This document shows positions 1,243 through 58,959 of a stretch of DNA of 64,000 nucleotides, in pieces. Each line of letters begins with the position of its first letter. The stretch's first letter is position 1. Under the pieces are notes generated by a model that saw only the letters and a program-made list of their open reading frames with translations, had not been told where the DNA came from and made no database searches. A program made the translations under genes and the position numbers. The stretch spans positions 27,060,901-27,124,900 of the forward strand of contig JAZGQO010000002.1 in assembly GCA_036850965.1 (NCBI GenBank). Direction: 5' to 3'. Source of the stretch: Patella caerulea (lineage: Eukaryota).

Positions 1243-1654
1243 TTATAAATCTTTTGTTTTGTATTCGTTCCACAATTCTAATAAACGACCATCACTGTTT
1301 GATACAAACTTCTTAAAATCGGCCAACACGTTATTTTGGAAATGTTCATCTCCAGTGTTTGACGATCTCCAGCGTTTTGACAACATGAAATTCCATGACC
1401 AAAGAAAACCTGTTTCTGTATGTGATTCTTCTGGTTCTTGTTGACGAGCAATGTAATCTTTACAAAGATCTGATGATGATCTTTTTCCAAAGCTTGAGGT
1501 ATAATGTGTTTGAACAGATTTAGGAGATAATAGTTTATAATCTGGTATAATGATGAACATACCACCAGTACAATGTACATATTGGTTAACTTCAGTATTA
1601 GTATCATCAGATATCACACCAGCTGAATATACACCAGCAGGAAGAAAACCAAAC
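1243..1654 (-). CDS. DEPDC5: DEPDC5 terminal coding exon ([42 protein letters not shown]...[52 protein letters not shown])
   Basis: Strong acceptor tttttttcttctttccatacag|G. The frame continues to a stop at about 1243. Similar to human '[36 protein letters not shown]' and '[34 protein letters not shown]'. The upstream 'MKLNL...' part of ORF 1243..1752 is intron read-through, not coding. Confidence 0.9.
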
Positions 1655-4600
1655 CTGTATGGAAAGAAGAAAAAAAAGTTCAGTCTCTTGCTAGTGGTCG
1701 ACAGGTTGGGAGTAAATTGAACAGGTGAAAGAGAGATGAGGTTTAACTTCACTTCTCACAAACCAGATCATTGTGGGACTATTATGGTATAAATTTTTAA
1801 ATTATTTGTTTCATCACTGGAATTACTGCCTGTCTTGTACCAACTTGGGATTGAACCAATGACTTTCATTGATCTACAATTCGTTACATCACATCCTACT
1901 TCACTACACCCAGTCAGTTAAATAAAGAGCAATAAAATTCTGATGAATGTTACAGGATGCAGAACCTAAAATGCCTGAAAACATTCATGTTATTAGATTT
2001 TGGGCACTTTATTTCGGCAACTGATGAATGCTAATTTTTATTTTCTCTTAACCCGTCTGCCCCAAAAAGTCAGATTGCCCAAAAGTTAGTACATAATCTG
2101 TCAAATATATAATATACCAATACTCACTTCTTAATGATAATTTGTTGAAAATGTAGTAACTGTTCTTGCCTGCAGTTTTCAGAAAGGTCTGAAAAGGAAA
2201 ATAATGAATTTTGGAAAAGGTAAGAATATAAACTATCTTTACTGCAAAACATTTATTGTGCAACACCATCCTTGATCCGATTCAGATTTAAATAAGGAAA
2301 TAAAGAGCCAACTCAAATATATTACATCCAGTAGATACAACTGGTTAACAAAGTGTGAAAGGCTCTTTGAAACTTAGTTGAATGTAACTATTTGAGGCTA
2401 TCGATCATACCAATAACCTTTTTGTCAGAGTTGTGCCTACTCATTGAAAACCAAAGTGGCCAGTGCTTGCTTTGCATCATTCTCATAGACGTATATAATG
2501 TGTGTATTTACTGTGAAGACTAACCTTGAATCTCATAATCGTCATTCAATATAGTATCCATCTTCAATGGAACAAATATTGGACCACGAAGAGGATCAGA
2601 ATTTGGAGAATTAGGTAAAGCAAAAGGATCAACTGGAACGGGTAGAAAGTGAAAACCACTAGATCCTGCCTTTCTTGTCCAACTATATACCTGTAAGAAT
2701 ATGGTACAGGTAACTAGATGAAAATCTTAAAATAAAGCTCCAGCCAACCATCAATATTGTTATTCAAAAGGCCGGTAATATTCCTGAAGCATTGGTATGA
2801 GAAATCCCCCTCTAGCCAGTTTTGAGTGCGAAAACTTGATTTTTGATAGTGTTTATTTTTATCACCCAATCAATAGAGTCTGATACAGCACCCACCCACG
2901 TTAGTAGTGACCTGTTGTTACTATGATAATAACTAAAAGTTTATGATTGGATGAATCGGGAGCAAACATTGATACTCAATTCGGTAAATTTGGTCTTCAC
3001 TGAAATTTTTGGACTAATTCTCCGACATAAGTTCTGTAAACATGTCTGTTTGTGCCAACATTAATTACTGAAAACCTTTGTGATGTATTAGTTAATAATT
3101 ATCCATATTTGGGAATAATGTAAAAAATAAACTGTTGGAAGTTGAATTTCTAGTCAGTCTCTTTGATCTGGGGTCTTCCCGAAAGCATTCAAACAGTTGA
3201 TTAAATGTATCAAAATATGGTGAAAATATTTGATGGCTGGTCCATCAAATGATAAAAGATTTCACACAATTAGCTTTTCTGCAATATTCTGTTATGCACT
3301 AGTTAATTGAGCACAATAAATTACGCTCATTGTGACAATATGGTCAATGGTCAATAAACTGTAACGTGGAAATCAAAAGTTTTATCGCCCCGGTTAAACA
3401 AGAATCGCCATACAGGAAAAAGTTACTGCCAAAAATTTCGCCAGATTGAATATTTTATCGCCAAAATTATATTTTTATTGCAATTGGCAGAAATGGTGAT
3501 GGACAGCGTGAGCGCTGAATGTGATCATATACTTTTATGTTAACATATTTACAATTTACAGCTCTATTTAATAACAGTTGTTTTTATACGTTATGTATTG
3601 GTTGTTGACCGGACTGTTGACCAGTCATAATTTGAGACAGAAATTTGCGGTGATCAAGCAGTGTTTGTGTCATCTTCAATAGAAAGCTTGATCTGGCCTT
3701 AACTACGTACATCTTATCAAGCCATTCATGCAATACCCTGCATATTTCGCCACTAAATTCGACTGGGTAACATCAGTTGTCGTGAATACCAAGTCTCGCT
3801 TTCTAGCTAAACTGTTTACATGTGACAATCAAGTTGCAAAGTTCAAAGATCGATCAATGTCAAGGTTGCTGGTTTTCCGTGAGTTTCTCAATTTAAAAAA
3901 AAAACTTTCAACGGCGGTAAACTTGTTTTTACAGTGCGTTATGTGATATGACCTACGATTGGACAATGCCAATCAGTCACGTGGAAACACAAAGGGCGCA
4001 AAAGTTTGAGAATTGTTGAGTATTGAAGCAACGGTTAGATGTTGTAAAACTCACGGACGTTGCTTAAGGAACATGTGTTTGAGTGGGATTAGGTCTAATC
4101 AACCAAAACACTGCAAGGAGTATGAAGGCCAGTGGGAGAATCAAGTCATCAATGGTGAAGTGAGTTTTTTTTTGTTGAAAAATTAAAATACCATCATATT
4201 TCATTAATAAAAAGCTAAATGACTCCCTCTATGTATCATTTTTCATTCATTAGAGTAAGAGTTATGTGGTTTGATTAACATCTACTTAGTACATACATTA
4301 GGTTATTTCAGGACTAACACATCGTACAAATATTACTTCAATATATTCCCCGTGACATGGGGTCTTCATCAGTGGTAGGAAACTGTGTCCATAGAAAAAC
4401 GAGGTTGAGATGGTGCTCTACTCCTTGTAAGGTAGAGACTTGGGATCGAAATCTTACCATTTAACTGAATGGTAGATCTTATTCTTTAAATGGCACGTGT
4501 TAGACCACTTGACACCCCTGTTCATTAGAATAACCAATTTTGAGTCGAAATGGTGGAATAATGTATTATTTATCTGCAGTAGGGATATTTATTTTAAAAT

Positions 4601-7600
4601 TATAAGCTAGAATCTTACCAGGTCGGCAAGAAGACAACCAGTAGCTACCATCCATTGAACTTGTAATTCAAACGCTGTATTTGGGCGATAGTAGGCATGG
4701 TAACGTGCTGTAGCCCATTCTAATCTTTCACTCTTTTTATTAATATCTACATCCACATTGACAAACTTGTTGTGTTTGGTTGCTGAAACAAAATCAAATC
4801 ATTGGTCAATGTGAACAACAAGTCTCATGAATTAAAGTATAAAACCTCCTTCTCTGAGCTAAGCAAGAGGCAATTCATTTTTTATATCACTGTTTGCATT
4901 CAGTCATTGAGATTCATGTGCATTGCTTGGTGGCAAATTCTTGAAGCTAACCATTCATACTCATCCTTAATTTGTTTTGTTGATCTATTATTTCTGTGTA
5001 TTATTCGTTTACATTGTCTATAAAGAGTTAAACTCTTTTTTTGCAATAATCACCTTTCAAGAACACAGATGCATTATGCAAGGGGTAAATTGGCCGGTTG
5101 CAAGTATTTTTTCTTGCTTCAAATGTTAAATAAATTATTATGTACAGCCCATAATGAACTCTCTAAAACATCTAATATCAATTGGATTAGACCATCCACG
5201 GCATATAATATTTCATTAATGTTAAAATGGACATCACTCGATAGAAGGACTGACTAAAGAATTTGTTTATTATCATGGCAATGGTACTCGACAATCAGCT
5301 ATTTCTTGTCAAGACTTCAACCAATCATAACCTTGTTCAGAATAATTAATTTGACTGAAATTTTCAATATAAACATTTTTTATTATGGAACTATTACAGC
5401 AAATATGGCCAGCTCTTACATAATGCACCTTCAAGTTAAGAGTAGTCAAAATTTCAATGGCTACATTGATATGTATTGCATGGGCCTTGGAAGTATATGA
5501 TGTTAAAATGCATTAAGTAACACTGACAAATGAGAAAGTTAATCAATCATGGAAACATGATGGTGGCTAATTCTAGATTATGACACTACACAGCCTTGAA
5601 ACAGTCAGTTAGCCTACATTAATCGCTGAATAATTGGAAGACCAATTAGCATACATTAATGGTAAACCAATTAGCCTATGTCAATGGCAGACCAATTAGC
5701 CTCCATTATTTGTAAATTTAAGAATGCTAAACCACAATATCAACTACCAGTAATTCATCATATTAAGTTTCAATCTATTATCATTTTCAAATTTCACTGA
5801 AATTTAATTCTATTCAATGTGTAATACTGCACTATAAAAATCTGACAATTTCAAACGGGTAAAATACAAAGAAAAAGAATGACATTAATACAGTACATTA
5901 AAAGCTGAAAGATTGAACTGTGCTGAAAACTAAAATAATAACAAAGTGAGATAGTAAATTAATGTGAAGGAAATAAAAAATTCATGTTAATTAATAAGCT
6001 CCAGCACCAATAAACCATAAACTGGTGATAAAACTGACTAATAAGAAGCTCTCTATTGTTGGATATTACAATATAACATACAGACTGTTATACAAGAGAA
6101 GTATTAACAAGTAAAAATCATTCTCTATGTGTTCAATTATTTGGTTTTAAGCTATATATACAAGCTATAGGTTGTTGTTTATTCCTCATTGTCGGGGACA
6201 GATTCACAAAACCTGAATAAAGGGGAATGGAGGAGGGGGTAGTTTGGGACAGGATATCCCCACATAATATTGATTTCAACTGTGACCATTCCCAAATCCT
6301 CCCCTGAACATTATTATACATTTAACCCTTTGAACACTGACTTTACATGGGGTGTTGCACGTCCCACCCTGGATTTACAGGACGTCATATTAATTATGAC
6401 GTCAAAATAATTGGTGTTTGTACACGCCCAAAGCCGCAAAACTGACATTTCGGGTATATGCGATACAACGTCAAGCCGGTTTTGCGGCATTTCGGGTTCT
6501 AAGGGTTAATATCTGCAGGTGTTTACTTATATTTTCAAGTTTCCAGAATACAAAAACAATGGGTAAATATAGATCCATGACAATGTTCAAGACATCAAAA
6601 CAGGACAAAAAATTGATGATAAAACCAAGGGCTCACTGTAACGTAACACATGTACATAAAGCATTAAATTCCTATATTGAGTTTGGTTAGATCGTCAGAT
6701 GTATATATGTGATATTTTTCAATGTTAAACTTGTTTTGATCCAATACATCTGTGTAGGAATAAAACATGGACTGTAAAATTATTTGATGATTATAATGAT
6801 GTCATTTATAGTAAAAACATTATAAGGTCCACGGTAAATAAACATGACTTGAAGTAAAGGATTACAACACAAGTATTGAAGTTACTCTTGACAAATACAG
6901 CCATTGCTTCAAAAGAAAATTTACATAAATAATTACTGGTCCACCATCTAGACTATAATATTATAAGTTTATCTAAGAATTAATCCAACTAAATAAAGAA
7001 TCTATAAGTGAGTGAAGATTATTATTTTGGTGTTGTTTTGCAAGATGAAGACATAACAACATTTGACAAACTATATAATATAAACACCTTGGCCGTACAA
7101 TATTATTATACTTACCTTTAACTTCACATAGATTGACTTTTCCTGTAAAAAATGCACATGGTAACACACAAAAACATGAAGATGAATGAATAATGAAATG
7201 AAATTGTAAACACATAATGGATCATTTCTTTCTATATTCTTTCCTTAAATATTATTTTGAGACTAACAGATGATCATTTACGATTAGGTATGGAATATAT
7301 TTGCACCCACTTTAAATAACAAGGAATGTTTTATATGAACTACCATTTTTCTTCTCATTTGAATGAGAAGATTGACTTTCCTGTAGAAATCAGATTCGAA
7401 AAATTGCAACATTGTATTCTCATATGACAAAAGATTTGAACTTGGGGAGATATCTTAGTTATGACTCCAGAGTTGGAACCACATGATTATGTATTATTAC
7501 GTCTGATGACAAAAGGTAATCCAGATTTCTATTATAACCCATACTTTTCAGTGTATGTATGTAGTATATATGCTGTTTAAATGTATAATATGTAAATTGT

Positions 7601-10600
7601 ATGTAGTTAAACAAAGCAATCAATAAAAAAATAACATTAACAATAAATAAAATCTTAAAACCCATAAAATCATTTAAACCATAAAATCATCCTGATTTTA
7701 TCAAAACTGGATACTACCTAGGGATATATTCAATAACGGTCACCACGGCCACCAAATAAAGAGTATACAACAATAATTTATATAGGTTAGAGATCTACAG
7801 AATATTATACTAGGCCTACACAATGATAACATAACAAACCTTCTGTCAATTTACAAATATATGTATACGGCAGATTGTAACCTAAGTAAAGGTGGAAAAA
7901 TTACAAGCTTTAGTTTGTTTTTTTTTATTAAAGGTATTAATCAAACGACCACAATAAATTTAAACTATAAAAACTATAAAGTCAGCAACTAAATTTAACA
8001 TAGAACACAAAATTTTAATCTCAGCAAATTTTTAAAAACAAATGCATAAACCTCTGGTTTGTAATATGTGACCACAAAGTATTCAGGAAACATCAAAATA
8101 ACATGTTGTTGAATTTTCTAATATTGTCAATTTTTACACCAAAATTGTTTTTAATAAAGGTACTTTTAATCATCTAGTGTCTTAAACTCTGTCTGTGTTT
8201 AACCTTTATTTTGGCATATTGAGGCTTTAACAGGGAAAACAGGAGGAAAAAACTATTTGAAAACTACTGTTAATAAGATTACTTGATAATTTAATTATAT
8301 ATTTAATCTCTTGATATAAATGTATCCAATATGCAATTAGTAACAACCAAACTATTATTCAACAATTCCAAGATACTTTTTAACAAAATATATCAAGTCA
8401 TGTTCTTACCTAACTGTTGACCTTTATCACGACAATTCAATCCAGATAAAACCCGCCAATCATCAGATTCCTCATCAAATGGTTTAAGTTCCTCATCTCT
8501 CAGATAGAATTTTTTCATTTCTTGAATTTCTTCCTCCTCTTGACAGTGTTTTATAGAAACTTCACAGAATTCATTTTGGAAGAACATATTGTATGGTTGT
8601 CCTGTTCCCAGATTTAAATCTGAAAGAGAAATATGAAATGAAGGGCACATTTAATAATCAGCAAATAACATGATCAAAAATAGTGAAATACAGCTTCTAA
8701 CCAACACCAAATTGTTTTGGTTTACAATAATGTATTCATAGAAAAATATATCCTTGAATAAGACACTTATACACGTACAGTATTGCCATCTACCAAGCTG
8801 TGCATATGTACCAACAGGACTATGTATAATATTACACAAAACAACTGCTCTTTCAGGCTTTCTAAGATATAACAAGCCAACATTGAGGCTGATGTCCCCC
8901 GCCGAAATCCAAAAATAAATAGATGACACATTAATTAATCGCACATTTATTTTTTTCAAACGTATCAAGCAATCAAACTGTACACGAAGTGTCATCCAAA
9001 AGTGTTTTATAAAGAAAAATGCTAAAACCGACTAGAAAAATGAAAATGTACCCTAGTTAGGTGGACCCTAAAGGCAGACAAAAGGGCCCCCACGCTTGAC
9101 AAAAGGGCCCCTCTGGCCAAGGGAAAGGGCCCTTGTGTCCGAGTCAATCTTTTCTATACACTGTTACGGTCGAATCCATTACTGAATGAGAATGCAGTCA
9201 TTGTATTGGCATAAAAATCATCAATCAAGATGAACCTAAGTTATCTTGTCCCAAAGTATCAACCAATCAAATTGCTTATCTCTGCCTACCCTAAGAAGAA
9301 AATGCTCATCTTCGAACTCCATGAAGGCATTGACCTTATAAGCATACACACCGATTTTGAACATTTTAACTCAATTCGAAGGAGAGTTATTGTGTTCCAA
9401 AGTCTCGGCAAATCAAATTGCTTATCGCTCTGCTTACCCTGAGCAGAAAATGCTCATTATCGATCTTAGTCAAGGTATTACTGTAATGAAACTATACACC
9501 AAGTTTCATCACTCTCACTTAATTAGAACTAAAGTTATCGTGTCCCAAAGCATCAACCAATCAAATTGCTTATCTCTGCTTACCCTAAGCGGAAAATGCT
9601 CATCTTTGAACTCCATCATGGCATTGATCGAATAAGCATATACACCAAGTTTGAACATTTTAACTCAATTAGAAGGAGAGTTATATTGTGTTCCAAAGTC
9701 TCGACCAATCAAATTACGTATCGCTCTGCTTACCCTGAGCAGAAAATGCTCATTATCGAACTTAGTCAAGGTATTACTGTAATGAAACTATACACCAAGT
9801 TTCATCAATCTCACTTAATTAGAACTAAAGTTATCGTGTCCCAAAGCATCAAACAATCAAATTGCTTATCTCTGCTTACCCTAAGCGGAAAATGCTCATC
9901 TTCGAACTCCATCAAGGCATTGACCTAATAAACACATACAACAAGTTTGAACATTTTAACTCAATTAGGAAGAGAGTTATTGTGTCCCAAAAAGTGTGAC
10001 GGACAGACAGACAGACAGAAGGACAGACAGACAGACGGACGAACCCATTTTAATAGTCCCCCAACTTTCTTTGAAAGGCGGGGTCAAAAAGAGGAGAAGT
10101 ACATTATAAATAAAACATAAGTTTTACAACTGATTGTAATGCATATTCCGAGATATAATCTTACCTTGTGTTTTTTGTTTAGATGAAGGTGTAACAACCA
10201 TGTAAATATAAAATCCATAAATAAATCTATGTTTAGGATTCCCTGATGCATGAATTATTAATTGATCATCTAATAATTTCTGTAAAAATAAATAATGTTA
10301 TTAAAATATTACTTATAAACTGTCACAGAAAAATGCACTTCACAGAAAAACATCATTGTGTATTCTTAAAAATAAAGATGTTCTTAGTTGATATTTTGGA
10401 GTTCTATTTGCATACTTAAGACCCATTATCAGCAAAAATGACATCATGAAAATTTCTGCTGGGTCATTGATGATGAAAGTAGTTTCAAAACCTTCATTAA
10501 GACCTTTTAATTACATAAAATACATGTATAAGTTCAGACTAATTAAAACGAGGATTATTTGCTGTATCAATCATAATTAGCTATCTTTAGGAAGTCTGCA

Positions 10601-40600: not shown

Positions 40601-42218
40601 GTTTCTTCTCCTGAATAAAGTAACCATTCCACAATAATTTATATATTTTAGAAAGATAGAACAATAATTGTAGCCTCAGGAGTACAGATTTGGTTGGCCG
40701 TCAGTATGACAGATCTATTGATGTACAATAAACCTACCTTCCATTTGAGAAATAGATCTGTAAGAAAACCATTAACAGCTTTTTCAAAATACAGATCTCC
40801 GCTAATATCAAAATCCCACATTTCAGATGACATCTGGATAAAAATTTGAACAACAGCTGTGGAAGAACGATAGACTACCTGAAAATATGACAAGCCAACA
40901 GTGAGGCTGATGGCCCCCCGCCGAAATCCCAAAATAAATAGATGACACATATTAATAAATCGCACATTTATTTTTTTCAAACGTATCGAGCAATCAAACT
41001 GTCCACAAAGTGTCATCCAAAAGAGTTTTAAAAAGAAAAATGCTAAAACCGACGAGAAAAATGAAAATGTACCCTAGTTAGGGGGACCAAAAAGGAAGAC
41101 AAAAGGGCCCCCACGCTTGACAAAAGGGCCCCTCTGGCCAAGGGAAAGGGCCCTCGTGTCCAAGTCAATCGTTTCTATACACTGTTACTGTCGAATCCAT
41201 CAATCATGATGAACCTAAGTTATCTTGTCCCAAAGTATCAACCAATCAAATTGCTTATCTCTGCTTAACCTTGGCGGAAAATGCCCATCTTCGAACTCCA
41301 TCAAGGCATTGATCTAATAAGCATATACACCAAGTTTGAACATTTTAACTCAATTAGAAGGAGAGTTATTGTGTTCCAAAGTCTCGACCAATCAAATTGC
41401 GTATCGCTCTGCTTACCCTGAGCAGAAAATGCTCATTATCGAACTTAGTCAAGGTATTACTGTAATGAAACTATACACCAAGTTTCATCACTCTCACTAA
41501 TTAGAAGTAAAGTTATCGTGTCTAAAAACATCAACCAATCAAATTGCTTATCTCTGCTTACCCTAAGCGGAAAATGCTCATCTTCGAACTCCATCAAGGC
41601 ATTGACCCAATATACACCAAGTTTGAACATTTTAACTCAATTAGAAGGAGAGTTATTGTGTTCCAAAGTCTCGACCAATCAAATTGCGTATCGCTCTGCT
41701 TACCCTGAGCAGAAAATGCTCATTATCAAACTTAGTCAAGGTATTACTGTAATGAAACTATACACCAAGTTTCATCAATCTCACTTAATTAGAACTAAAG
41801 TTATCTTGTCCCAAGGCATCAAGCAATCAAATTGCTTATCTCTGCTTACCCTAAGCGGAAAATGCTCATCTTCGAACTCCATCAAGGCATTGACCTAATA
41901 AGCATATACACTAAGTTTGAACATTTTAACTCAATTAGAAGGAGAGTTATTGTGTTCCAAAGTCTCGACCAATCAAATTGCGTATCGCTCTGCTTAGCAG
42001 AAAATGCTCATTATCGAACTTAGTCAAGGTATTACTGTAATGAAAGTTATCGTGTCCCAAAGCATCAACCAATCAAATTGCTTATCTCTGCTTACCCTAA
42101 GTGGAAAATGCTCATCTTCGAACTCCATCAAGGCATTGACCTAATAAACACATACACCAAGTTTGAACATTCTAGCTCAATTAGGAAGATAGTTATTGTG
42201 TCCCAAAAAGTGAGACGG

Positions 42219-42254
<36 letters not shown>

Positions 42255-45200
42255 ACCCATTTTAATAGTCCCCCAACTTTCTTCGAAAGGCAGGGGACAA
42301 AAAATCTAAATTACCATACACCATACAGTGAGCTGAACTATGGGGAATATTTTGCCTGTATAGCAATTAAATTCTGTTGTTTTTACATGCACGACACCAT
42401 GAACTATCCTGTCTGAACAACGAGACACGGTTCCTTGCTAGGCGCTTCATTCAGCACCACTCACATGGGGAAGAACATGCTGAAAAATCCTAGAAAACTA
42501 TCTCAGCCAACACTATGATCGAACCCTGGACATTTATAATGGTGACATATGTGATAATATATTTACCCTGGTTGTATCTGATATAACACCACATGTTACT
42601 TTCTCTCCTTTACTCCATAATTCAACTACTTCAGCTCTATAATCATACAAATTAATACAACAATATCGCCATTGTATAACGTTTTCAGCTAAAAATACAG
42701 TAGCAGTATCACATCTTCACTTTTGTACCCAGTCAAATTGGTACCATTAACCGGGGTTGGATGACCGAATGGTTAGCACAATCATGTCCGCTGTAACATA
42801 GGTTCTGCCATTGAGTCAACTGATGTGGTTTCGATTCCTGGGTTGTACCTTGGTATGGGTCCTCTGGTTTCCCCACACTGATAAAGATCCCTATGTGCAA
42901 GCGAATTATTGAAATAAAATTGAACCATAGTTTGTGTCTAGTGGACGTTCGAGTCCATTTCTCTTTCTCTCTGGTACCATTAACAAATACAGCTACCTTA
43001 ATTAGCCATGATACTGTCGCAAGTGTAATGGTTGGCACACAAATATAAATACAATATAATAGACTTAATAAATAGACATAATAATAAGTGAAAAAAGAAA
43101 AATATAAACAGTTGGGTGAATCATTAAAATTTTTAAAAAAGTGTCAAAAGACATGATCAATCAATCCTTGTCTACTATATACATATTACATTAGATTCAG
43201 TATAAAAACAAGAATGAAATAGATGCATAACCACCACGGTTTCACTCAAAACCCATATACAACAAACCACACCAACCTATTTGAACAAAGGCCAAATTCT
43301 CTAACAAGATCTAATTAATGTATCAATTATTACCTCATTTCTGTGTATTCCACCTTTTTATTCAAATAAACACATCCTCCAATCTGATAATCAATACATA
43401 TGTACAAATATTAATATCCCTCAAAGTAAATATATAATAGACATTTTCAGATTCATACACTGTTAATTATAACTGATACATAATTAATACGAGTTAGGAT
43501 ACTGTGTTGTATTATGACTATAGGTCACCATATATTTATCACCATAATTGTATTGCAATATGATTTCAATTACGATGAATTTACAGGTCACAAATTTAAT
43601 AAGTCAATAAGCATACCCAACTTTGATCAGGTCATTATTGCAGACAGGTGAATCATAATACATTGATTCAACAATTTATATTTTGTAATGTAGGCTCTTT
43701 GTTATCAATTATTTATTTCAACAGAGAGCTGATGCCTTTTTGTGTATCTATGGATGGACATAAAGTTATAATTTCTGAAGATCTTTTAAAACCAATGATA
43801 AAGAAGATTTAATTAGAGAGTTTTAACTACAGAATAACCCTATAAGTTGTTAGAATTTTAAAAACAGATGTATGTATGAATAATTGTGAAAACTTACCAG
43901 ACTTTTCCACATTCGATACATGTCACTTCTACTGAAATACTGCTCTTTAAACAATAACTCTACCAAATCTAATGACACATCCTATAATAGTCATATTCAT
44001 AGAAATCATTGCACTTAATATTTCCTACTGAAACGTTTGAATTTTCAAAAGGGTATTATCACTTAAACCAACAAAATAAATGGTTTTAAAGGGCATAATC
44101 ACTTTTACTAGTAAAACAAAACCAGTAAATTTGGTCAAAACAATTCAACTTTTAGTTTTTGGGGTTCAAGATGAATGAAAAAAAATGCACTCAATTCCTG
44201 CCTGTGATTTTTAGACAACATTTCAAATCTTTAATATTTGGAGCAAAAAGCTTTTGAAAAGAGCAACCAGATACTTTTTGTTTTAACATCTAGGATATAA
44301 GACTATCACTTCTAAGAACATTACAATACTGAGCGCCATAGAAAACGCATCACTTAGTTTTTCGTATAACAAAATGATCCTGTAAACATATCTTATTTAT
44401 TTTGCTTCTTATTGTGAACAATATTCAAATGGGAACACATCAATAACAACACATTTGTACACTTATGGATGTTTAATATGTAATCAACGGTACAAAGTCA
44501 GAGGGGTCAAAACCAAAAGTATTACAAAGATGGTTAATTGTCAGTTGCGCGTGTGTCCTCCACTGGCTCTTACGCACACTGTGCAGCACAATTAACAATC
44601 TTTGTCATGCTTTTGTTTGGGTTATGTACAGGAATATATTTGTAAATCATTATCAAATTCTTACCTTTGGATTAACTTTGCTCACATAAACATCTTTATT
44701 TTTCAGGTGAAAGGCAGCTGCAATTGACTGTTCAATACTGATGGCTTCTAAATAATTTTAATTATAAATAAAATCACATTATATGCGATAAGCTTATACA
44801 GTCCAGTTTAAAAATTGAGAAATAAAATATTTACCTTTCTTAATTACTTTATACAAGTTACCTGTTGTCCTCCATATTTAATTCGACACAAGTACTGTAT
44901 TTATGTGGTTAGGTTTTAATGAAATGTAACCTCCTACTTCCCTGCACCAACTAGACTAATATTAAAGATTGACGATCTGGCATACACAGGCAGAAACTGA
45001 CAAAGAGTACTTTAATGTGCATGCCAAAGTGTAATTAAATGGACCCTTGGTTTTTCGAACCATATTCTGAACTACTAGACAATCTCCTTACAAGACCCTC
45101 CCGTACTGCATGGCTGACATGGCATCGAAAGCAGGACCACCATGTTAACAAGCCAGCACCTTATCCTCTGAGTCACTGCGGCTCCGTGTGCTTAGGGACA

Positions 45201-48200
45201 TGCATACAAAACAAGACTCCACTGTCTAGCTACGAACAATTTATTTGTTTTAATGCTCAATTTCCCATAAGTTTATTGCATAGGATATTATTTGGCAAAT
45301 ATAAAGTTAGTCATATTTAACTTGTATTTAATTTGGTATTCTTGTATTACCTTTTTGTTGTGGACATTCATCTTTGACATCTTTAACCTGTTTGACTGGT
45401 TTAACTTGTAGGAGAAGACGACTGAAATCAGACGATAAAATAAAAGTTGAGTTAATATAAAGAAAAGTTGCCAGGCAACAACACATACCCCTACAGCAGT
45501 TAAAGCATTTGAGCAGTTGACAAGGGCTGTCTCATATTAATTGAGGCATTTACAAGACTATTTCAGACAGATTAGGTTATTTTCGTCATTTTTGGGTTCA
45601 CAAATTTCTACAAACTGAAACAACAGTCTCAATAATAGGCGTTTTTGTTTTACTTAATAATGCATTAAAATTTCAAATTTTAACCTGCTATTGTGCTGAT
45701 ATGTGAGGGAATTTTGGTAAGAAGTTGCAGACGATACTAAAAAATATGATATTCTGGAGTGTTGACTTGCACTCAATATTTGACTAAGTCACCTCAAATA
45801 TTAGTCATTTCAGAGGGGGATGGGGGGTGGAGAATAAGTGCATGGATATGCCATTATGATGCATTCAGTTATGCCAGTTATGAAACAAATAAGTATGAAA
45901 CGATATTTATTTTGAAATGAAATGAAGTGCGGTTTAACGTCCTTATCTGCATCTACTGGGCTAATATAGTTTGCCATCAGATGTCAGCACTACAGTCTAC
46001 TTTTATTTTGAATTACGGCTTTAAGAGGTACATTGGACCTTGTTTTTTCGCACCTTCCATTCTGAATCACTGACCAAAGGTAACCAACCAGGCATACCTA
46101 CTTATCTATTATAAACACCAGACATTCATTCCCCGTTCTCCATAGTTCACACACACACTTCGCATCTTACGGCCTTACGCTGTCTTGTTTGTGTTTGACC
46201 CCATCCCATTCTGTCGGACCTATGCATAAGGGTGGATACAGAACTTACCAAAAGGGGTGGGGTGGGGTGAGCCAAAAAAAAGTCCCCTCCAGGGTATCGA
46301 GAACAGCATCAAGATATGTAAGAAATGACAAACAGCCAATCTAGCCGGAACCAACTCAATAATAGTTGTATTTTAGGTCTTTGAAGTTTGATAATTACAA
46401 ATATAATGTTCGTGACAAATGATATTATATCTAATATAAGTCATCAAATTCTGTGTAATTGACACTAAGTTGTATCTATAAAAATTGCAAAAGTAGTATG
46501 TAAACGGCCAATAAAATTCCATTGAAACATGAAACACATTTTATGTTTATATATTACAATGACATGAAAAGCGGAGCTATGCGCCAACCAACCTAATTAA
46601 AAATGATAATAACATTTTCATCTTTGAGGTGATCGGCCTACGCCTGGAGGGCCAAACTCAATTTTGTTTTGGAGAATAATACTGCTTAATTTTGTGTTAA
46701 AAGCTCTTGAAATTCTACCTTAGGGCCAAGCAACTATATTTTGGAGAATAAAATTGTTTAATTTTGTGTGAAAAGCTATTAAAATCCTCTACATTTGGGC
46801 TGAGCAACTAATTAACTCAATATACATGATACGTTTTCAAACAACTTAAACCCGTCAGTTGTCATCCGGAAATGGAGACTGGTGTCTCATGCTGTGTCTG
46901 GATAAAACCAGACTTTTATTTTATAAAATAACGTATTGGTGAAATTTACCTCGGTCATACACTTTATAGACCTCTAAAGGAACAGCAATAGATTATCAGG
47001 TCATCCAACAAAACAAATTGGATGGAAATTTTAAAAGGGTCACGTATCTGCATAAGCGGTTTTGATTTTCATGCCAAAGGACTCAGTATTTCGAACTGAA
47101 ATTTTGAGACAAGGTAAATACATCATTCCTTAATATTTTGGTGCTTATATTTCATATGTACACGGTTGGTTTCTGAGACTGTGTTAAACAGACAAAAAAA
47201 ACATATTAATTCAAACAAAAACAATATTGTTTCACACAAGCTTCACAGAGTGAAACCCTTATATGTTTTATTGTCGCGACTCGCGAAACAAACAGAAGAA
47301 TTCTCCATCACTAAACATTTCTAACCAAATGCACACAATTTGTAAAGTACCTGTCTACCCTAAAGTGACTTGCAAGTGTTCCATTTAACGCAGGCTTAGT
47401 TGTAATGTTTACCTTCTGAGAAAGTGACAGTGTCAGAGAGCGAATGCGATATTTACGTGATATTTACAAGAGAGAATGTGATATTTACAAGATTTACAAG
47501 AGAGAATGTGATATTTACAAGAGAAAAACTTGATTTTATCGGATTTCTAGTCATTTAGGCTATGGGGAGAAATCAAAGGGATGAAAATCCAAGGTATGTC
47601 ACAAAGTTTTAGCCATTTTAATCAAAAAAAGGGCAAGCAATTTTCGAGTCGGAGTATCACCTGGAAAAGACAGTAATTTCAATCATGCATATAAATTCCA
47701 TAAATATCGGATGATAACTTTTTGCACTTTATATAGTCATCAGGAACCATTTTTCAATTTGGTAAGCCCAGGAGAAATGATATATATTATCCAATTCGAA
47801 AATAGCCTATGCCTTGCATCCTCCAAAAAAAGCTAATCAAATCATTTAGAAAGCTGATATTTGGGTAGAAATGTTACAATACAAATAATTGGGCTTTCAA
47901 TGACTGATCCCAACTGAGACACAAATGATATGTCAAGCTGGATAATTTTAAAACTACTTTAAAGCAAAATTTATATTTTTATCTTCAACAAAATGAAATA
48001 AGGTCCATAATTCTATACGAAATTAATGGAAATTGCTGAAATGCAATAAGATTCTTTGTTTCACTAATTTAAAGTAAATGAAGCATAATAACTTTATACA
48101 AATCGGACAATAACTTTTGTCATGAAACAAGAGTCATAACTCCGGAAGGAATTAACAGGAATGAATGAAATTAAAACTTTAGGTTTCTTCATGTCACTGA

Positions 48201-48634
48201 TGTAAACATCCAGGCTGGAAGACATAGTACGGTCGGGACGACGACAATCAACCACTATATTTCCACGTGGGTGTATAAAAATTGATAATTTTATCATGGA
48301 AACAATAATCTTATCTTCTCTTATTTTTAATACTAAGTATACTGGCATGTTTTTTATTATTTTAATCTGTTTTGTGACATAGTAATATTAGTAATAATCT
48401 TTCTTGATGAACGTCTATTCTTTGAAGATTCTTCACACTTCTTTTTGAAATTATTTTTTATATAATCTTAATTAAAAATGATATTCAATTTAATTAAGCT
48501 ATAGCATCAATGCCCTTAAAATATTAGGTTCATTTTCATTACAGACCTATATGCCTCTGCTTGGTCGTAAATCTCTACAACATCTCCAAGATTAATATCT
48601 GGGAATTCTTTAGGATTCAGAACAATATCTGCAT
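1243..48634 (-). CDS. DEPDC5: DEPDC5 ortholog (GATOR1 subunit, DEP domain-containing 5). Multi-exon gene, 35 or more coding exons located; the initiator exon may lie near 49.35–49.41 kb; exons between 32.5 and 38.6 kb are not fully resolved.
   Basis: A chain of minus-strand exons has consensus splice sites and consistent codon phase. Conceptual products match remembered human DEPDC5 blocks (human comparison is from memory). N-terminus: '[24 protein letters not shown]'. Middle: '[39 protein letters not shown]', '[19 protein letters not shown]', '[47 protein letters not shown]', '[29 protein letters not shown]', '[21 protein letters not shown]'. DEP domain: '[55 protein letters not shown]'. C-terminus: '[42 protein letters not shown]', '[15 protein letters not shown]', '[21 protein letters not shown]'. 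Confidence 0.85.
1700..1912 (-). mobile_element. tRNA-derived SINE copy between the last two DEPDC5 exons
   Basis: The reverse complement has a B box GGTTCAATCCC within 'gggtgtagtgaagtaggatgtgatgtaacgaattgtagatcaatgaaagtcattggttcaatccc'. The tail is 'gaaatgaggtttaac'. Confidence 0.55.
2128..2188 (-). CDS. DEPDC5: DEPDC5 exon ([21 protein letters not shown])
   Basis: Acceptor ttttccttttcag| and donor AAGAA|gtgagt. At 61 nt it is exactly the 2+3k+2 length needed to restore phase between the flanking exons. Similar to human 'DRMHLFQEAIAHR'. Confidence 0.75.
2525..2690 (-). CDS. DEPDC5: DEPDC5 exon ([55 protein letters not shown]-)
   Basis: Acceptor attcttacag| and donor TCAAG|gttagt. Similar to human '[49 protein letters not shown]'. 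Confidence 0.9.
4619..4782 (-). CDS. DEPDC5: DEPDC5 exon ([55 protein letters not shown])
   Basis: Acceptor tttgtttcag| and donor ACCTG|gtaaga. Similar to human '[48 protein letters not shown]'. Confidence 0.9.
5585..5700. repeat. Short tandem repeat, about 5 units of ~22 bp (gaccaattagcctacattaatgg)
   Basis: 'cagttagcctacattaatcgctgaataattggaagaccaattagcatacattaatggtaaaccaattagcctatgtcaatggcagaccaattagcctccatta'. Confidence 0.8.
6314..6510. mobile_element. Candidate piggyBac-like MITE, about 190 bp, flanked by TTAA
   Basis: Left end cattTTAA|CCCTTTGAACACTG... and right end ...CGGGTTCTAAGGG|TTAAtatc. Terminal inverted repeats CCCTTTGAAC / GTTCTAAGGG with TTAA on both sides. Internal palindromes 'gccgcaaaactg'/'cggttttgcggc'. 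Confidence 0.5.
8410..8619 (-). CDS. DEPDC5: DEPDC5 exon ([70 protein letters not shown]-)
   Basis: Acceptor tatttctctttcag| and donor GTTAG|gtaaga. The interior lies within the listed ORF 8393..8650. Phase-consistent. Confidence 0.8.
8874..10090 (+). mobile_element. Satellite-carrying nonautonomous element, copy A (pearl/Helentron-like). Structure: 5' arm, about 760 bp of 147-bp x 2 tandem repeats (9230-9990), a (GACA/GACG)n tract (9990-10050), and a 3' arm ending ...GGCGGGGTCAAAAAG.
   Basis: Shares its 5' terminus CAAGCCAAC(A/T)(T/G)TGAGGCTGATGTCCCCCGCCGAAATCC, its GGGCCC-rich arm, its repeat unit and its 3' arm with the copies at 40893-42300 and 58861-60727. An internal 10-bp inverted motif GTCCCCCGCC sits near both ends. 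Confidence 0.7.
10164..10278 (-). CDS. DEPDC5: DEPDC5 exon, second half of the DEP domain ([38 protein letters not shown]-)
   Basis: Acceptor ttatttatttttacag| and donor CACAAG|gtaaga. Similar to human '[29 protein letters not shown]'. Confidence 0.9.
10600..12980. mobile_element. Possible ~2.4-kb nonautonomous element. It is bounded by inverted 'CTCGAAATTAA' ends and by two directly oriented ~45-bp hairpin motifs.
   Basis: 10623 'cgctcgaaattaa' versus 12956 'ttaatttcgagg'. Hairpins 'ctgccacggcataattcatttttttttgccgtggtaga' (10678-10716) and 'ctgccacggcatttttcatttttttgtgccgtggtaga' (12914-12951). Internal ORFs are unconvincing. Confidence 0.35.
13776..13908 (-). CDS. DEPDC5: DEPDC5 exon, first half of the DEP domain ([45 protein letters not shown])
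   Basis: Acceptor atgttttaatag| and donor TGCAG|gtacta. Similar to human '[30 protein letters not shown]'. Fits the DEP-domain pattern CF.G.E.V.W. Confidence 0.9.
15489..15556 (-). CDS. DEPDC5: DEPDC5 exon ([22 protein letters not shown]-)
   Basis: Acceptor ttatctattttag| and donor GACAA|gtaaga. Phase-consistent. Confidence 0.75.
15784..15901 (-). CDS. DEPDC5: DEPDC5 exon ([40 protein letters not shown])
   Basis: Acceptor ctatactttctag| and donor CTCGA|gtaagt. Similar to human 'CDIYGDRP...LLDGFVRFVEGLNRIRR'. Confidence 0.85.
16521..16603 (-). CDS. DEPDC5: DEPDC5 exon ([27 protein letters not shown]-)
   Basis: Acceptor taattacag| and donor TCACG|gtaggt. Similar to human '[26 protein letters not shown]'. 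Confidence 0.9.
17393..17557 (-). CDS. DEPDC5: DEPDC5 exon ([55 protein letters not shown])
   Basis: Acceptor gcagacattcgcag|, phase-selected. Donor GGAG|gtatat. Similar to human '[37 protein letters not shown]'. Confidence 0.85.
18785..18910 (-). CDS. DEPDC5: DEPDC5 exon ([42 protein letters not shown])
   Basis: Acceptor cattaacag| and donor AATCAG|gtaaaa. Similar to human 'GYQIIVQPKTQKPN'. Confidence 0.85.
19060..20060. mobile_element. Foldback element, about 1 kb. Two ~480-bp arms in inverted orientation around a centre at about 19595.
   Basis: Left arm 19060-19590 ('atatcacccactaacacaattgacagtagatatcgcttgtgtgataaaatacataatcttctgcaatatctccttaggagatatc...'). Its near-exact reverse complement is at 19600-20060. 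Centre 'aaaaaacgaggctctgccgagttttttt'. Lies in a DEPDC5 intron. Confidence 0.8.
20191..20284 (-). CDS. DEPDC5: DEPDC5 exon ([32 protein letters not shown])
   Basis: Acceptor gtattattttag| and donor GCAGAA|gtaagt. Similar to human 'MTAQQVFEEFICQRLMQ'. Confidence 0.85.
20913..21057 (-). CDS. DEPDC5: DEPDC5 exon ([49 protein letters not shown])
   Basis: Acceptor atattttattag| and donor ATAAA|gtaaga. Similar to human '[44 protein letters not shown]'. Confidence 0.9.
22932..23042 (-). CDS. DEPDC5: DEPDC5 exon ([37 protein letters not shown]-)
   Basis: Acceptor tgtgattgtag| and donor ATAA|gtatgg. Phase-consistent. Confidence 0.7.
23390..23630. repeat. Minisatellite, about 6 units of ~40 bp ('gcacactgagtttgttatggatgttttggggt...')
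   Basis: Direct tandem copies in a DEPDC5 intron. It generates the listed ORF 23417..23632, a repeat-phase artefact. Confidence 0.85.
23829..23924 (-). CDS. DEPDC5: DEPDC5 exon ([32 protein letters not shown]-)
   Basis: Acceptor tattattcaacag| and donor TACAG|gtagtg. Phase-consistent. Confidence 0.75.
24151..24266 (-). CDS. DEPDC5: DEPDC5 exon ([39 protein letters not shown]-)
   Basis: Acceptor tatattttaaacag| and donor ACATG|gtaaga. Ser-rich linker. Confidence 0.75.
24643..24731 (-). CDS. DEPDC5: DEPDC5 exon ([29 protein letters not shown]-)
   Basis: Acceptor tattacgttgattacag| and donor AACAG|gtatgt. Phase-consistent. Confidence 0.75.
25747..25850 (-). CDS. DEPDC5: DEPDC5 exon ([35 protein letters not shown])
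   Basis: Acceptor ctttgaacag| and donor TTGCAG|gtatat. Phase-consistent on both sides. Confidence 0.75.
25915..26395 (+). mobile_element. Short TIR-bearing satellite element (D1). Contains 2-3 units of a ~150-bp repeat related to the 33.7-35.1 kb array, a short (GACA)2 tract and a degenerate 3' terminus.
   Basis: 5' end GGTTGCCAGCAATAAAACATACACCCACAGTAGC and 3' end ...GACAGACAGGGGCAATGACAATATACGCCCACATTTCAATGT. Shares the ATACRCCCACA terminal motif with the element at 33533-35258. Confidence 0.5.
26520..28297 (+). mobile_element. TIR-bearing satellite element (D2). About 6 units of a 292-bp dimer made of two ~146-bp submonomers, at 26640-28230.
   Basis: Terminal inverted repeats ACAATATACGTCCACATTC (26541-26559) and GAATGTGGACGTATAAAAAT (28277-28296). 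The 3' end is preceded by (CA)n/GACAGGGGCGACGGC. The tandem unit is 'aaatgggcgtggctctgcccctggggg...'. Confidence 0.6.
28416..28634 (-). CDS. DEPDC5: DEPDC5 exon ([73 protein letters not shown]-)
   Basis: Acceptor ttggttttgttacag| and donor TAAAG|gtagca. Similar to human '[30 protein letters not shown]'. Confidence 0.9.
29296..29543 (-). CDS. DEPDC5: DEPDC5 exon ([82 protein letters not shown]-)
   Basis: Acceptor tgtgtttttctgtttttaag| and donor CATGG|gtaata. Phase-consistent. Falls in the Ser/Arg-rich, low-conservation linker. Confidence 0.75.
30470..30660 (-). mobile_element. SINE fragment carrying the family's 'gttttaacgtccactgggtc' tail motif
   Basis: Similar to the heads and tails of the other SINE copies. 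No TSD seen. Confidence 0.4.
32357..32471 (-). CDS. DEPDC5: DEPDC5 exon ([39 protein letters not shown])
   Basis: Acceptor ttgtgtttattacag| and donor CCACT|gtaagt. The frame differs from the listed ORF 32211..32489. Contains the 'DYDAYDAQVFRLP'-like block of human DEPDC5. Confidence 0.8.
32923..33204 (-). mobile_element. tRNA-derived SINE, full-length copy, flanked by a 16-bp TSD GAGAGATGGATAGAGA
   Basis: The same 16-mer occurs at 32907-32922 and 33205-33220. The reverse complement starts with a tRNA-like head carrying an A box TAGTGGTCTAGAGTG and a B box GGTTTCGAGCCC. The tail is ...GAGTGGACCTAAACCTCATTTCTTTCTC. Confidence 0.8.
33533..35258 (+). mobile_element. TIR-bearing satellite element (D3). 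About 10 units of a ~150-bp satellite (33700-35150), a (GGAC)n tract (35155-35205), and a duplicated 3' terminus at 35315-35355.
   Basis: 5' end ...GGTTGCCAGGCAACGAAACATACGCCCACAACAGC and 3' end ...GGGGCGACGGCAATATACGACCACATTTCCATGTGGGCGTATAAAAA. The TIR ATACGCCCACA pairs with TGTGGGCGTAT. ORF 34293..35246 (317 aa) is a repeat-phase artefact of this array. Confidence 0.65.
35662..35695 (-). CDS. DEPDC5: Possible short DEPDC5 exon ([11 protein letters not shown]-). Provisional; part of the unresolved 32.5–38.6 kb interval.
   Basis: Acceptor cattgattttcag| and donor AAAAG|gttagt. Phase 0 in and 1 nt out, which fits the downstream exon 32357-32471. Homology to human 'TPRIKLAGKKP' is weak. Confidence 0.3.
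36497..36775 (-). mobile_element. tRNA-derived SINE copy, reverse orientation
   Basis: Shares the core 'ggtctttagcagtgggagga...' and tail 'gagtggcgttaaaacccattctctc' with the other copies. The reverse complement has a tRNA-like head. Confidence 0.7.
36838..37735 (+). mobile_element. 5'-truncated non-LTR retrotransposon (CR1/L2-like LINE) carrying the C-terminal part of the reverse transcriptase and the ORF2 tail. Followed by an A/T-rich simple-repeat tail to about 38210.
   Basis: Listed ORFs 36845..37327 ('...[62 protein letters not shown]...') and 37349..37723 ('...[23 protein letters not shown]...[10 protein letters not shown]') show the LINE RT thumb motif and the CR1-type C-terminal motif. 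Confidence 0.75.
37900..38210. repeat. A/T-rich low-complexity tract of (TTTA/TTATT)n type, downstream of the LINE fragment
   Basis: 'ttattatttttttattcatttttttattatttttttttatttc...tttatttatttatttattttttt...'. Confidence 0.8.
38632..38705 (-). CDS. DEPDC5: DEPDC5 exon ([24 protein letters not shown]-)
   Basis: Acceptor tttttgtttaacag| and donor CATAG|gtaaat. Similar to human '[25 protein letters not shown]'. Ends with 2 nt of a split codon. Confidence 0.85.
38853..38914 (-). CDS. DEPDC5: DEPDC5 exon ([21 protein letters not shown])
   Basis: Acceptor gtatgtttaag| and donor TTAAG|gtatat. Similar to human '[20 protein letters not shown]'. Confidence 0.9.
39142..39276 (-). CDS. DEPDC5: DEPDC5 exon ([45 protein letters not shown])
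   Basis: Acceptor tatttattttttag| and donor TGTG|gtaggt. Similar to human '[31 protein letters not shown]...TKQRMIDNG'. Confidence 0.9.
39698..39891 (-). CDS. DEPDC5: DEPDC5 exon ([65 protein letters not shown])
   Basis: Acceptor catttttcag| and donor AAATT|gtaagt. Similar to human 'KVVVQNERREEWTSLL...NSTSAQGNYLEAINLSFN'. Confidence 0.85.
40161..40233 (-). CDS. DEPDC5: DEPDC5 exon ([23 protein letters not shown])
   Basis: Acceptor ttttattttcag| and donor TATAG|gtaatg. Similar to human '[23 protein letters not shown]'. Confidence 0.85.
40394..40463 (-). CDS. DEPDC5: DEPDC5 exon ([23 protein letters not shown])
   Basis: Acceptor ttatttttattacag|. Donor ATGG|gtttgt is weak. Phase-consistent and similar to human '[23 protein letters not shown]'. 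Confidence 0.7.
40738..40878 (-). CDS. DEPDC5: DEPDC5 exon ([47 protein letters not shown])
   Basis: Acceptor tcatattttcag| and donor GGAAG|gtaggt. Near-identical to the human '[39 protein letters not shown]' block. Confidence 0.9.
40893..42300 (+). mobile_element. Satellite-carrying nonautonomous element, copy B. Same family as 8874-10090. Repeats at 41200-42200, (GACA)n tract at 42213-42256.
   Basis: Same termini, arms and 147-bp x 2 repeat unit as copy A. Located in the DEPDC5 intron between exons 42567-42636 and 40738-40878. Confidence 0.7.
42567..42636 (-). CDS. DEPDC5: DEPDC5 exon ([24 protein letters not shown])
   Basis: Acceptor tgattatag|A chosen to satisfy phase; a stronger upstream tttttag acceptor breaks the frame. 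Donor CCAGG|gtaaat. Similar to human '[23 protein letters not shown]'. Confidence 0.65.
42754..42972 (+). mobile_element. tRNA-derived SINE, same family, flanked by a 12-bp TSD GGTACCATTAAC
   Basis: TSD at 42741-42753 and 42973-42984. The head has an A box TGGTTAGCAC and a B box GGTTTCGATTCC, then a conserved core '...tgcaagcgaattattgaaataaaattgaacc...' and a tail GAGTCCATTTCTCTTTCTCTCT. Confidence 0.8.
43334..43383 (-). CDS. DEPDC5: DEPDC5 exon ([16 protein letters not shown])
   Basis: Acceptor gattatcag| and donor TGAG|gtaata. Similar to human 'VSTCAYITQKVEFAGI'. Ends with 2 nt of a split codon. Confidence 0.7.
43898..43981 (-). CDS. DEPDC5: DEPDC5 exon ([28 protein letters not shown])
   Basis: Acceptor ctattatag| and donor TCTG|gtaagt. 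Similar to human '[28 protein letters not shown]'. Phase 0 at both ends. Confidence 0.85.
44665..44747 (-). CDS. DEPDC5: DEPDC5 exon ([27 protein letters not shown])
   Basis: Acceptor ttatttag| and donor AAAG|gtaaga. Similar to human '[28 protein letters not shown]'. Confidence 0.8.
45040..45200 (-). mobile_element. tRNA-derived SINE-like fragment of a different subfamily; related copy at about 46020-46150
   Basis: The reverse complement contains 'GGTGGTCCTGCTTTCGATGCC', which is B-box-like. 'ggacccttggtttttcgaacc' resembles 'ggaccttgttttttcgcacc' at 46038. Listed ORF 45039..45320 is probably spurious. Confidence 0.4.
45351..45421 (-). CDS. DEPDC5: DEPDC5 exon ([25 protein letters not shown])
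   Basis: Acceptor gatttcag| and donor AAAAG|gtaata. Phase fits both flanking exons. Similar to human 'PLLLQVKSLKEDLQKE'. Confidence 0.7.
46640..47165. repeat. Interspersed repeat of unknown class; second copy at about 50760-51135
   Basis: Shared blocks 'ttggagaataa.a.t..t.aattttgtgt.aaa.gc.ct.aaaat' and 'gggt.acgt.tctgcat.agtg.ttttgat...ctgaaattttgaga.aaggtaaa.aca.cattc.t.atattttgg.gc.taaatttcata'. Confidence 0.5.
47930..48295 (+). mobile_element. 3' fragment of a related TIR/satellite element, with a ~150-bp repeat remnant and the terminus ...GACGACGACAATCAACCACTATATTTCCACGTGGGTGTATAAAAA
   Basis: The terminus is homologous to the 3' ends at 35200-35258 and 28250-28297. The internal unit resembles the 33.7-35.1 kb satellite. 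Confidence 0.45.
48547..48634 (-). CDS. DEPDC5: DEPDC5 exon, N-terminal region ([28 protein letters not shown])
   Basis: Acceptor tttatttatttcag|AT and donor ATAG|gtctgt. Matches human '[24 protein letters not shown]'. Begins with 2 nt and ends with 2 nt of split codons. Confidence 0.8.
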
Positions 48635-49349
48635 CTGAAATAAATAAAAGTGTTATGTTGTTAATTATGTCAAAAATCTCTCCCAAGGATAAGCACCAAG
48701 TCTGATACCCTTCACATAATATAAACAATAGAACTTCAGGTATGTGTTTAAAATGAAAGAGGGTTTAAAGTCCACTCAACACCAATAAAAGCGACTGTAC
48801 AATCAAATATCCCAAAGCATAAAATAGTGTATTTAAAAAATCAACCTATTTACTTGTAAATGTTGCGTACTTAGTTTTATCGAACTGCTGGGTGACTTTT
48901 TCACAGCAACTCAAATCTTGTATGGTGGGACTGACTACACATGTAAATTAAAGTTGCAATGTATTTGTCTCATCTCGCTGTTGAGTTTGGGCGGTTACAC
49001 ACATAAATTATTCATCTGTCTGCGTTCTGTAATTGCCATTTTTCCTCCTCTCTATTTTATCCGAGTTGGATGGGATGCTTTTCTTAGTTTTAGAGGCCTT
49101 TAAATTCACCTTTTAATAATATCTTTACATGGTCATGCTGGTATGTTGGCTATATGCACCCACCAAATAGACATTTTCAGACTTAAGGAATACGCCTGTT
49201 GAATGTTATGAAAACAGTTTTCTTTGGCTCAAAAGAAGGACAGAAATTTGGCAATCTACAGTAAAACTTTATTGTAAAATTTGTTTCAAAGACAAGGAAA
49301 GTTGACTGAATTCCTACTGTGCAATCAGTAGACTCGTGATCAATTGAAC

Positions 49350-49407
49350 TTTTAATCTGTGTTGTAACAGCCTTTAGTTTATATTTCTCACGGACTAAAC
49401 CAAACAT
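49350..49407 (-). CDS. DEPDC5: Candidate initiator exon of DEPDC5 (MFGLVREKYKLKAVTTQIK...). The donor (GTTCAA) is weak, so the exact 3' end is uncertain.
   Basis: The ATG at 49407 (minus strand) opens a frame with the 'KYKL' motif, compared with human 'MRTTKVYKLVIHKK'. The phase-1 donor after 'QIK' would join exon 48547-48634 to give 'N-ADIVLNPK'. No better candidate lies upstream within 3 kb. Confidence 0.3.
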
Positions 49408-58860: not shown

Positions 58861-58909
58861 CCCCCGCCCTTTCGAAGAAAGTTGGTGGACTATTAAAATG
58901 GGTTCGTCC

Positions 58910-58959
<50 letters not shown>

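Follow-up and report, generated by a model that had tools for sequence, protein, structure and literature searches.

A complete, intact gene for DEPDC5/Iml1, a subunit of the nutrient-sensing complex GATOR1, almost certainly lies on the minus strand of a 64,000-nucleotide stretch of the genome of the Mediterranean limpet Patella caerulea (contig JAZGQO010000002.1; referred to as the window), at locus SNE40_002690. The gene structure and its intactness, the orthology and domain content of the protein, its identity to the annotated one, and the way in which the five deposited isoforms arise from the exons were established directly, and no evidence was found that contradicts the assignment to DEPDC5/Iml1. 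GATOR1 is built from DEPDC5, its large scaffold subunit, plus NPRL2 and NPRL3, and acts as the GTPase-activating protein (GAP) for RagA/B, by which mTORC1 is switched off under amino-acid scarcity; the human gene is medically important both as a focal-epilepsy gene and as a regulator of mTORC1. Since DEPDC5/Iml1 occurs in organisms ranging from yeast to animals, an ortholog was expected in the limpet, and the gene is ordinary, conserved, and already known: it has been deposited for P. caerulea, and is named Iml1 in the sister species Patella vulgata. This study only adds a functional name for what was called a "hypothetical protein", accounts for the five isoforms at the level of exons, and points to one conserved, unannotated candidate cassette of 42 nt.

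Gene model and the deposited protein

The window is AT-rich (approximately 30-35% GC along most of its length), and the gene occupies its minus strand from 50616, or further upstream, down to 1243, and then continues into the 3' untranslated region, which heads towards position 1; the first AATAAA past the stop codon is found at 886. The gene model was built by aligning the Iml1 protein of P. vulgata (isoform X2) to the window in combination with a search for splice junctions, and full-length orthologs were retrieved with a concatenated query of 970 amino acids from among 5.8 billion proteins. Using ungapped tblastn, P. vulgata Iml1 X2 gave a strictly colinear chain of minus-strand matches from 50616 to 1246, in which nearly the whole query was covered. 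Because gapped tblastn fused adjacent exons over short in-frame introns, it was replaced by ungapped high-scoring segment pairs and an explicit GT/AG search: for each pair of adjacent exons, all of the frame-keeping GT/GC donors and AG acceptors were enumerated, and the joined peptide was scored against the reference.

The 40 junctions in the first model (41 exons) were GT-AG with clear score margins, except for the pair 32357/29543, where the reference residues DEIEEV were absent. A search of that intron revealed a micro-exon of 18 nt (31674-31691) as the sole in-phase segment flanked by AG and GT that encodes DEIEEV, while an alternative acceptor at 29582 was rejected for its unrelated peptide. 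The final model comprised 42 coding exons of 18-412 nt, with a median of 92 nt, and 41 introns, all GT-AG and in consistent phase, of 123-3496 nt each (44.7 kb summed); the peptide of the P. vulgata ortholog was recovered over every junction. The coding sequence (CDS) of 4722 nt, from the ATG at 50616 to the TAA at 1243-1245, encodes 1573 amino acids, and contains one stop codon only, the terminal one. The donor consensus was (A/C)AG followed by GTAAGT, and the polypyrimidine fraction 5' of the acceptors was 0.68. The coding exons are listed below; unless stated otherwise, they are based on ungapped tblastn with P. vulgata Iml1 and the GT/AG junction search.

Exon 1, 50574..50616 (-): 43 nt; ATG 50616-50614; amino acids 1-15, MKTYKLSLHSKTQK; donor AAG followed by GTAATA
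Exon 2, 48547..48634 (-): 88 nt, phase 1; IML1_N domain
Exon 3, 45351..45421 (-): 71 nt; insertion of 3 amino acids (PVK) relative to P. vulgata
Exon 4, 44665..44747 (-): 83 nt
Exon 5, 43898..43981 (-): 84 nt
Exon 6, 43334..43383 (-): 50 nt
Exon 7, 42567..42636 (-): 70 nt
Exon 8, 40738..40878 (-): 141 nt; internal alternative acceptor, first base 40833 (KAK6190925.1)
Exon 9, 40394..40463 (-): 70 nt
Exon 10, 40161..40233 (-): 73 nt
Exon 11, 39698..39891 (-): 194 nt
Exon 12, 39142..39276 (-): 135 nt
Exon 13, 38853..38914 (-): 62 nt
Exon 14, 38632..38705 (-): 74 nt
Exon 15, 36278..36356 (-): 79 nt
Exon 16, 35662..35695 (-): 34 nt
Exon 17, 32357..32471 (-): 115 nt
Exon 18, 31674..31691 (-): cassette micro-exon of 18 nt, (L)DEIEE(V); skipped in KAK6190929.1
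Exon 19, 29296..29543 (-): 248 nt; Ser/Arg-rich linker
Exon 20, 28416..28634 (-): 219 nt
Exon 21, 25747..25850 (-): 104 nt
Exon 22, 24643..24731 (-): 89 nt
Exon 23, 24150..24265 (-): 116 nt
Exon 24, 23829..23924 (-): 96 nt
Exon 25, 22932..23042 (-): symmetric cassette of 111 nt, 37 amino acids; skipped in KAK6190929.1, KAK6190926.1, and P. vulgata X4
Exon 26, 20913..21057 (-): 145 nt; includes SDYNLLPDD with Tyr857
Exon 27, 20191..20284 (-): 94 nt
Exon 28, 18785..18910 (-): 126 nt
Exon 29, 18576..18661 (-): 86 nt
Exon 30, 17393..17567 (-): 175 nt
Exon 31, 16521..16603 (-): 83 nt
Exon 32, 15784..15901 (-): 118 nt
Exon 33, 15489..15556 (-): 68 nt
Exon 34, 14653..14724 (-): 72 nt
Exon 35, 13776..13908 (-): 133 nt; N-terminal half of the DEP domain
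Exon 36, 10165..10279 (-): 115 nt; C-terminal half of the DEP domain
Exon 37, 8410..8619 (-): 210 nt; beginning of the C-terminal domain
Exon 38, 7116..7142 (-): cassette micro-exon of 27 nt, (G)KVNLCEVK; skipped in KAK6190927.1 and KAK6190926.1
Exon 39, 4619..4782 (-): 164 nt
Exon 40, 2525..2690 (-): 166 nt; includes Arg1367
Exon 41, 2128..2188 (-): 61 nt, entered in phase 1
Exon 42, coding part, 1243..1654 (-): 412 nt including TAA 1243-1245; the peptide ends in KTKDL and the stop codon

The protein of this model was identical, residue for residue (1573 amino acids; exact-sequence look-up), to KAK6190928.1 / UniRef100_A0AAN8K1J6 from P. caerulea, that is, the same gene with no sequence difference; because the translated model equals the deposited protein across all 1573 residues, chance is excluded. 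The names of KAK6190928.1 are uninformative: "hypothetical protein SNE40_002690" in GenBank and "DEP domain-containing protein" in UniRef. The GenBank entry can be renamed GATOR1 subunit DEPDC5/Iml1. The P. caerulea annotation comes from BRAKER1, supplied with 200 M RNA-seq read pairs, BRAKER2, supplied with OrthoDB proteins, and TSEBRA (PMC11003540).

An earlier reading of the window, made from the letters alone (referred to as the sequence-only reading), had described a near-complete gene of at least 35 exons between 1243 and 49407, with canonical splice sites in consistent codon phase. The splice sites were borne out (41 of 41 introns were GT-AG, and the CDS was open to its end), and the exon count was correct and conservative, 41 of the 42 coding exons being located inside 1243-49407. 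The micro-exon of 61 nt at 2128-2188, proposed there as exactly the length that restores the phase between its neighbours, was reproduced to the base by the junction search (61 = 2 + 57 + 2). "Near-complete" was an understatement since the whole CDS lies in the window. As for the interval, the end at 1243 agreed with the TAA at 1243-1245, but that at 49407 was not retained, the true start being approximately 1.2 kb further upstream (50616). The exons reported as missing between 32.5 and 38.6 kb were found at 36278-36356 and 35662-35695, and the missing 5' exon at 50574-50616, outside the interval; the 18-nt exon at 31674-31691 was absent from that reconstruction. Protein-to-genome alignment with P. 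vulgata Iml1 placed the DEPDC5 homology at this locus, with the junctions in frame. Beyond this quality control, in which a metazoan gene of 40-plus exons had been rebuilt almost correctly from raw sequence, the importance of the locus is small.

Domain content and orthology

Pfam analysis of the 1573-residue protein revealed IML1_N (PF23013), the N-terminal double-psi beta-barrel, at amino acids 1-90 (1.8e-25; 89.4 bits, cut-off 27); IML1 (PF12257) at 102-389, over the full profile (1-286/286; 8.7e-105; 350.3 bits, cut-off 26.2); DEP (PF00610) at 1159-1216 (4.7e-10; 39.7 bits, cut-off 32.7); and DEPDC5_CTD (PF19418) at 1241-1558 (7.5e-60; 203.4 bits, cut-off 27). The same IML1, IML1_N, DEP, and DEPDC5_CTD domains had already been found by Pfam in three crude fragments. 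Along the protein, IML1_N and IML1 are followed by a long low-complexity linker, a segment that aligns with the part of human DEPDC5 that binds Rag, the DEP domain, and finally the C-terminal domain.

Among solved structures, a concatenate (233 amino acids) of the N-terminal and IML1-domain exon pieces matched human DEPDC5 (6ces_D; E=1.3e-80) as well as yeast Iml1 (E=6e-19). With the full protein, these matches were extended to E=0 and 1059.7 bits for 6ces_D (stretches of amino acids 2-669, 786-1111, and 1119-1567), and to E=1.3e-60 for yeast Iml1 (8adl_W). The best match in the protein search was "GATOR complex protein Iml1 isoform X2" from P. vulgata (1570 amino acids, 1893 bits), followed by proteins from Lottia, Gigantopelta, Haliotis, and many bivalves; among the matches listed (5.8 billion proteins searched), the named ones were all DEPDC5, Iml1, or DEP domain-containing, and the remainder were unnamed or hypothetical. 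The peptide blocks quoted by the sequence-only reading as DEPDC5-like were all found in stop-to-stop frames of the minus strand, and follow one another as expected for one gene read from high to low coordinates: they start at amino acids 18 (exon 2), 175 (exon 8), 348 (GVFEVDR), 372, 621, 824, and 1522, and the DEP block (CFISAE...FIYGFYIY) corresponds to amino acids 1161-1215, split across exons 35 and 36. These domains, structural matches, and the identity with KAK6190928.1 agree with the minus-strand DEPDC5 (GATOR1) ortholog claimed by that reading, and sequence comparison thus supported the assignment of the locus as a DEPDC5/Iml1 ortholog.

Compared with the four Iml1 isoforms of P. vulgata, X1-X4 (XP_050411210/212/213/214), the limpet protein of the window showed 96.4% identity to X2 and matched it exon for exon in colinear order, with approximately 50 substitutions; besides the alternative exons, the sole indel was the in-frame insertion of 3 amino acids (PVK) within a short repetitive motif of exon 3. 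Human DEPDC5 (PDB 6CES/6CET, 7T3A-C, 8FW5) has its domains in the same order and is of similar length (1573 amino acids in the limpet and 1603 in human), whereas the linkers (approximately amino acids 440-620, 670-785, and 1100-1150) are divergent and of low complexity. Iml1/Sea1 from Saccharomyces cerevisiae (SEACIT; PDB 8ADL) shares IML1_N, IML1, and part of the C-terminal domain, but is far more distant: two stretches only were aligned, and the value for the C-terminal fragment was 7e-14.

By analogy with the human and yeast orthologs, we infer that the limpet protein would be the scaffold subunit of a GATOR1 complex (DEPDC5-NPRL2-NPRL3). On the same grounds of orthology, its partners, the assembly of the complex, Rag binding, GAP activity toward RagA/B, and the inhibition of mTORC1 would correspond to those of the human system. 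The partner genes, NPRL2 and NPRL3, were absent from the 64-kb window. In human DEPDC5, substitution of Tyr775 (Y775A) disrupts the inhibitory Rag-binding site, and Arg1407 sits at an auxiliary interface with RagC (PMC10316081). Limpet Tyr857 (SDYNLLP, exon 26) aligns with human Tyr775, and limpet Arg1367 (SWTRKAG, exon 40) with human Arg1407.

Isoforms and alternative readings of the locus

All five isoforms deposited for P. caerulea were reproduced exactly from the exons of the window. Relative to KAK6190928.1, exons 18 and 25 are skipped in KAK6190929.1, exon 38 in KAK6190927.1, and exons 25 and 38 in KAK6190926.1, while KAK6190925.1 uses an AG within exon 8 (first base 40833). The deposited models come from an automatic pipeline, so that the minor isoforms may be artefacts of prediction; the greatest doubt attaches to the exon-8 acceptor, with which 15 residues of the conserved IML1 domain are lost. 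Two of the skipping events also occur in P. vulgata, where X4 lacks the 111-nt exon and X3 the 27-nt exon.

On the other hand, isoforms X1 and X4 of P. vulgata carry an insert of 14 amino acids, the counterpart of which in the window is not annotated:

Candidate cassette exon, 7840..7881 (-): 42 nt, 14 amino acids; flanks ttAG / GTTTGT; between exons 37 and 38

When placed between exons 37 and 38, this segment is in phase and stop-free, and its peptide matches the insert of P. vulgata X1 (YNLPYTFICKITEG) at 12 of 14 residues. It is absent from each of the five deposited P. caerulea isoforms, and the deposited set is therefore without this conserved 42-nt cassette. The comparison points, tentatively, to one more alternative cassette in the P. 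caerulea DEPDC5 locus than is annotated, although we regard this as somewhat doubtful. If it were true, the candidate exon would stand next to the 27-nt exon 38 as a second cassette micro-exon in the region of the C-terminal domain (DEPDC5_CTD, amino acids 1241-1558), and these two cassettes and the 18-nt exon 18, located in the long linker, could serve limpet GATOR1 as regulated and possibly tissue-specific switches.

Two other readings of the locus were considered. A decaying duplicate (a pseudogene or paralog), instead of a functional ortholog, is exceedingly improbable: nothing specific speaks for it, and although the introns are riddled with repeats, the open reading frame (ORF) of 4722 nt is unbroken over 42 exons, and all of the splice sites are canonical. 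The 96.4% identity to Iml1 from P. vulgata, the indels being multiples of three nt only, and the conservation of both of the functional residues checked (Tyr857 and Arg1367) also argue against decay, as does the 90%-identity cluster, whose members are all isoforms from a single locus tag in P. caerulea or a single gene in P. vulgata.

The other reading concerns the start of translation, which would be the ATG at 49407, in a first exon encoding MFGLVREKYKLKAVTTQIK, instead of, or as an alternative to, exon 1 (50574-50616). This ATG opens a stretch of 58 nt (49350-49407, minus strand) that runs to a GT in phase 1, compatible with exon 2, and contains a KYKL motif resembling the N-terminus of the family. 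However, the donor of this stretch (GTTCAA) is weak in comparison with the GTAAGT consensus of the 41 introns, and all five P. caerulea isoforms do without this ATG. Furthermore, the annotations of P. caerulea and P. vulgata (RefSeq) both begin with MKTYKLSLHSKTQK, where the two species are 100% identical (amino acids 1-14 of exon 1 by tblastn), and the same MKT(Y/L/F)KL start (MKTYKL in the limpet) is found in Gigantopelta and Haliotis. A start at 49407 is therefore very improbable, and the stretch is probably a chance look-alike of the DEPDC5 N-terminus, from which the 5' boundary of the sequence-only reading originated. Exon 1 at 50574-50616 was retained as the first coding exon of the DEPDC5/Iml1 gene.

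Repeats and surroundings of the gene

No family was detected by Rfam (gathering thresholds) and no transfer RNA (tRNA) by the tRNA scan in the 64 kb, and the introns therefore hold no small nucleolar RNAs or tRNAs. No neighbouring host gene was identified within the window. A repeat element was found in three copies, two of them in DEPDC5 introns and the third inverted:

Approximately 8650-10090 (+): copy in a DEPDC5 intron
Approximately 40950-42300 (+): copy in a DEPDC5 intron
58870-60590 (-): inverted copy upstream of the gene

The core of the element consists of 146/294-bp tandem repeats, with 2.6 to 5.5 units of approximately 294 bp that are 92-96% alike between the copies. In every copy, the core is followed by a (GACA)n microsatellite, and then by a conserved flank, GAACCCATTTTAATAGTCC(C/A)CCAACTTTCTT. 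This layout recalls the tandem-repeat-plus-microsatellite elements of bivalves, associated with miniature inverted-repeat transposable elements or Helentrons, to which the limpet element may be analogous. The window also contains the following tandem arrays.

26820-28243: intronic tandem array, period of 145/292 bp
33604-35219: intronic tandem array, period of 150 bp
53953-54332: tandem array upstream of the gene, period of 161 bp
62730-62905: tandem array upstream of the gene, period of 56 bp

Since repeats and elements occur upstream as well as in introns, the load of transposable elements (TEs) is not confined to the introns. A published satellite of P. caerulea, PcH-sat, has a monomer of 179 bp (PMC11121367). 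Judged by period alone (146/294, 145/292, 150, 161, and 56 bp versus 179 bp), the arrays in the window are unlikely to be PcH-sat.

Several segments outside the exons resembled parts of retrotransposons. Upstream of the gene, 57489-57972 (-) gave weak Pfam matches to RVT_1, below the cut-off (E of approximately 5e-4 and 1e-3), and is a degraded remnant of a retrotransposon without long terminal repeats (non-LTR). A second degraded non-LTR remnant, 36818-37720 (+), is located in the intron that separates exons 14 and 15, and reads like the C-terminal part of ORF2 from a long interspersed nuclear element. Pfam analysis of the long non-exonic ORFs gave no match for 36.8-37.7, 52.4-53.3, and 63.3-64.0 kb. 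An ORF of 238 amino acids at 63285-63998 (+), which runs off the end of the window and contains ...PFDGTSSIMDYQIHFETCAELNRWDE, looks by eye like a retrotransposon gag, and two overlapping ORFs at 52414-53251 (+) end in a Cys-rich motif, CKSCQELIKCGCNVDKGCRGRCKCVKAGVACTTYCKGHGDC; these long upstream ORFs (63285-63998 and 52414-53251) are both probably derived from TEs.

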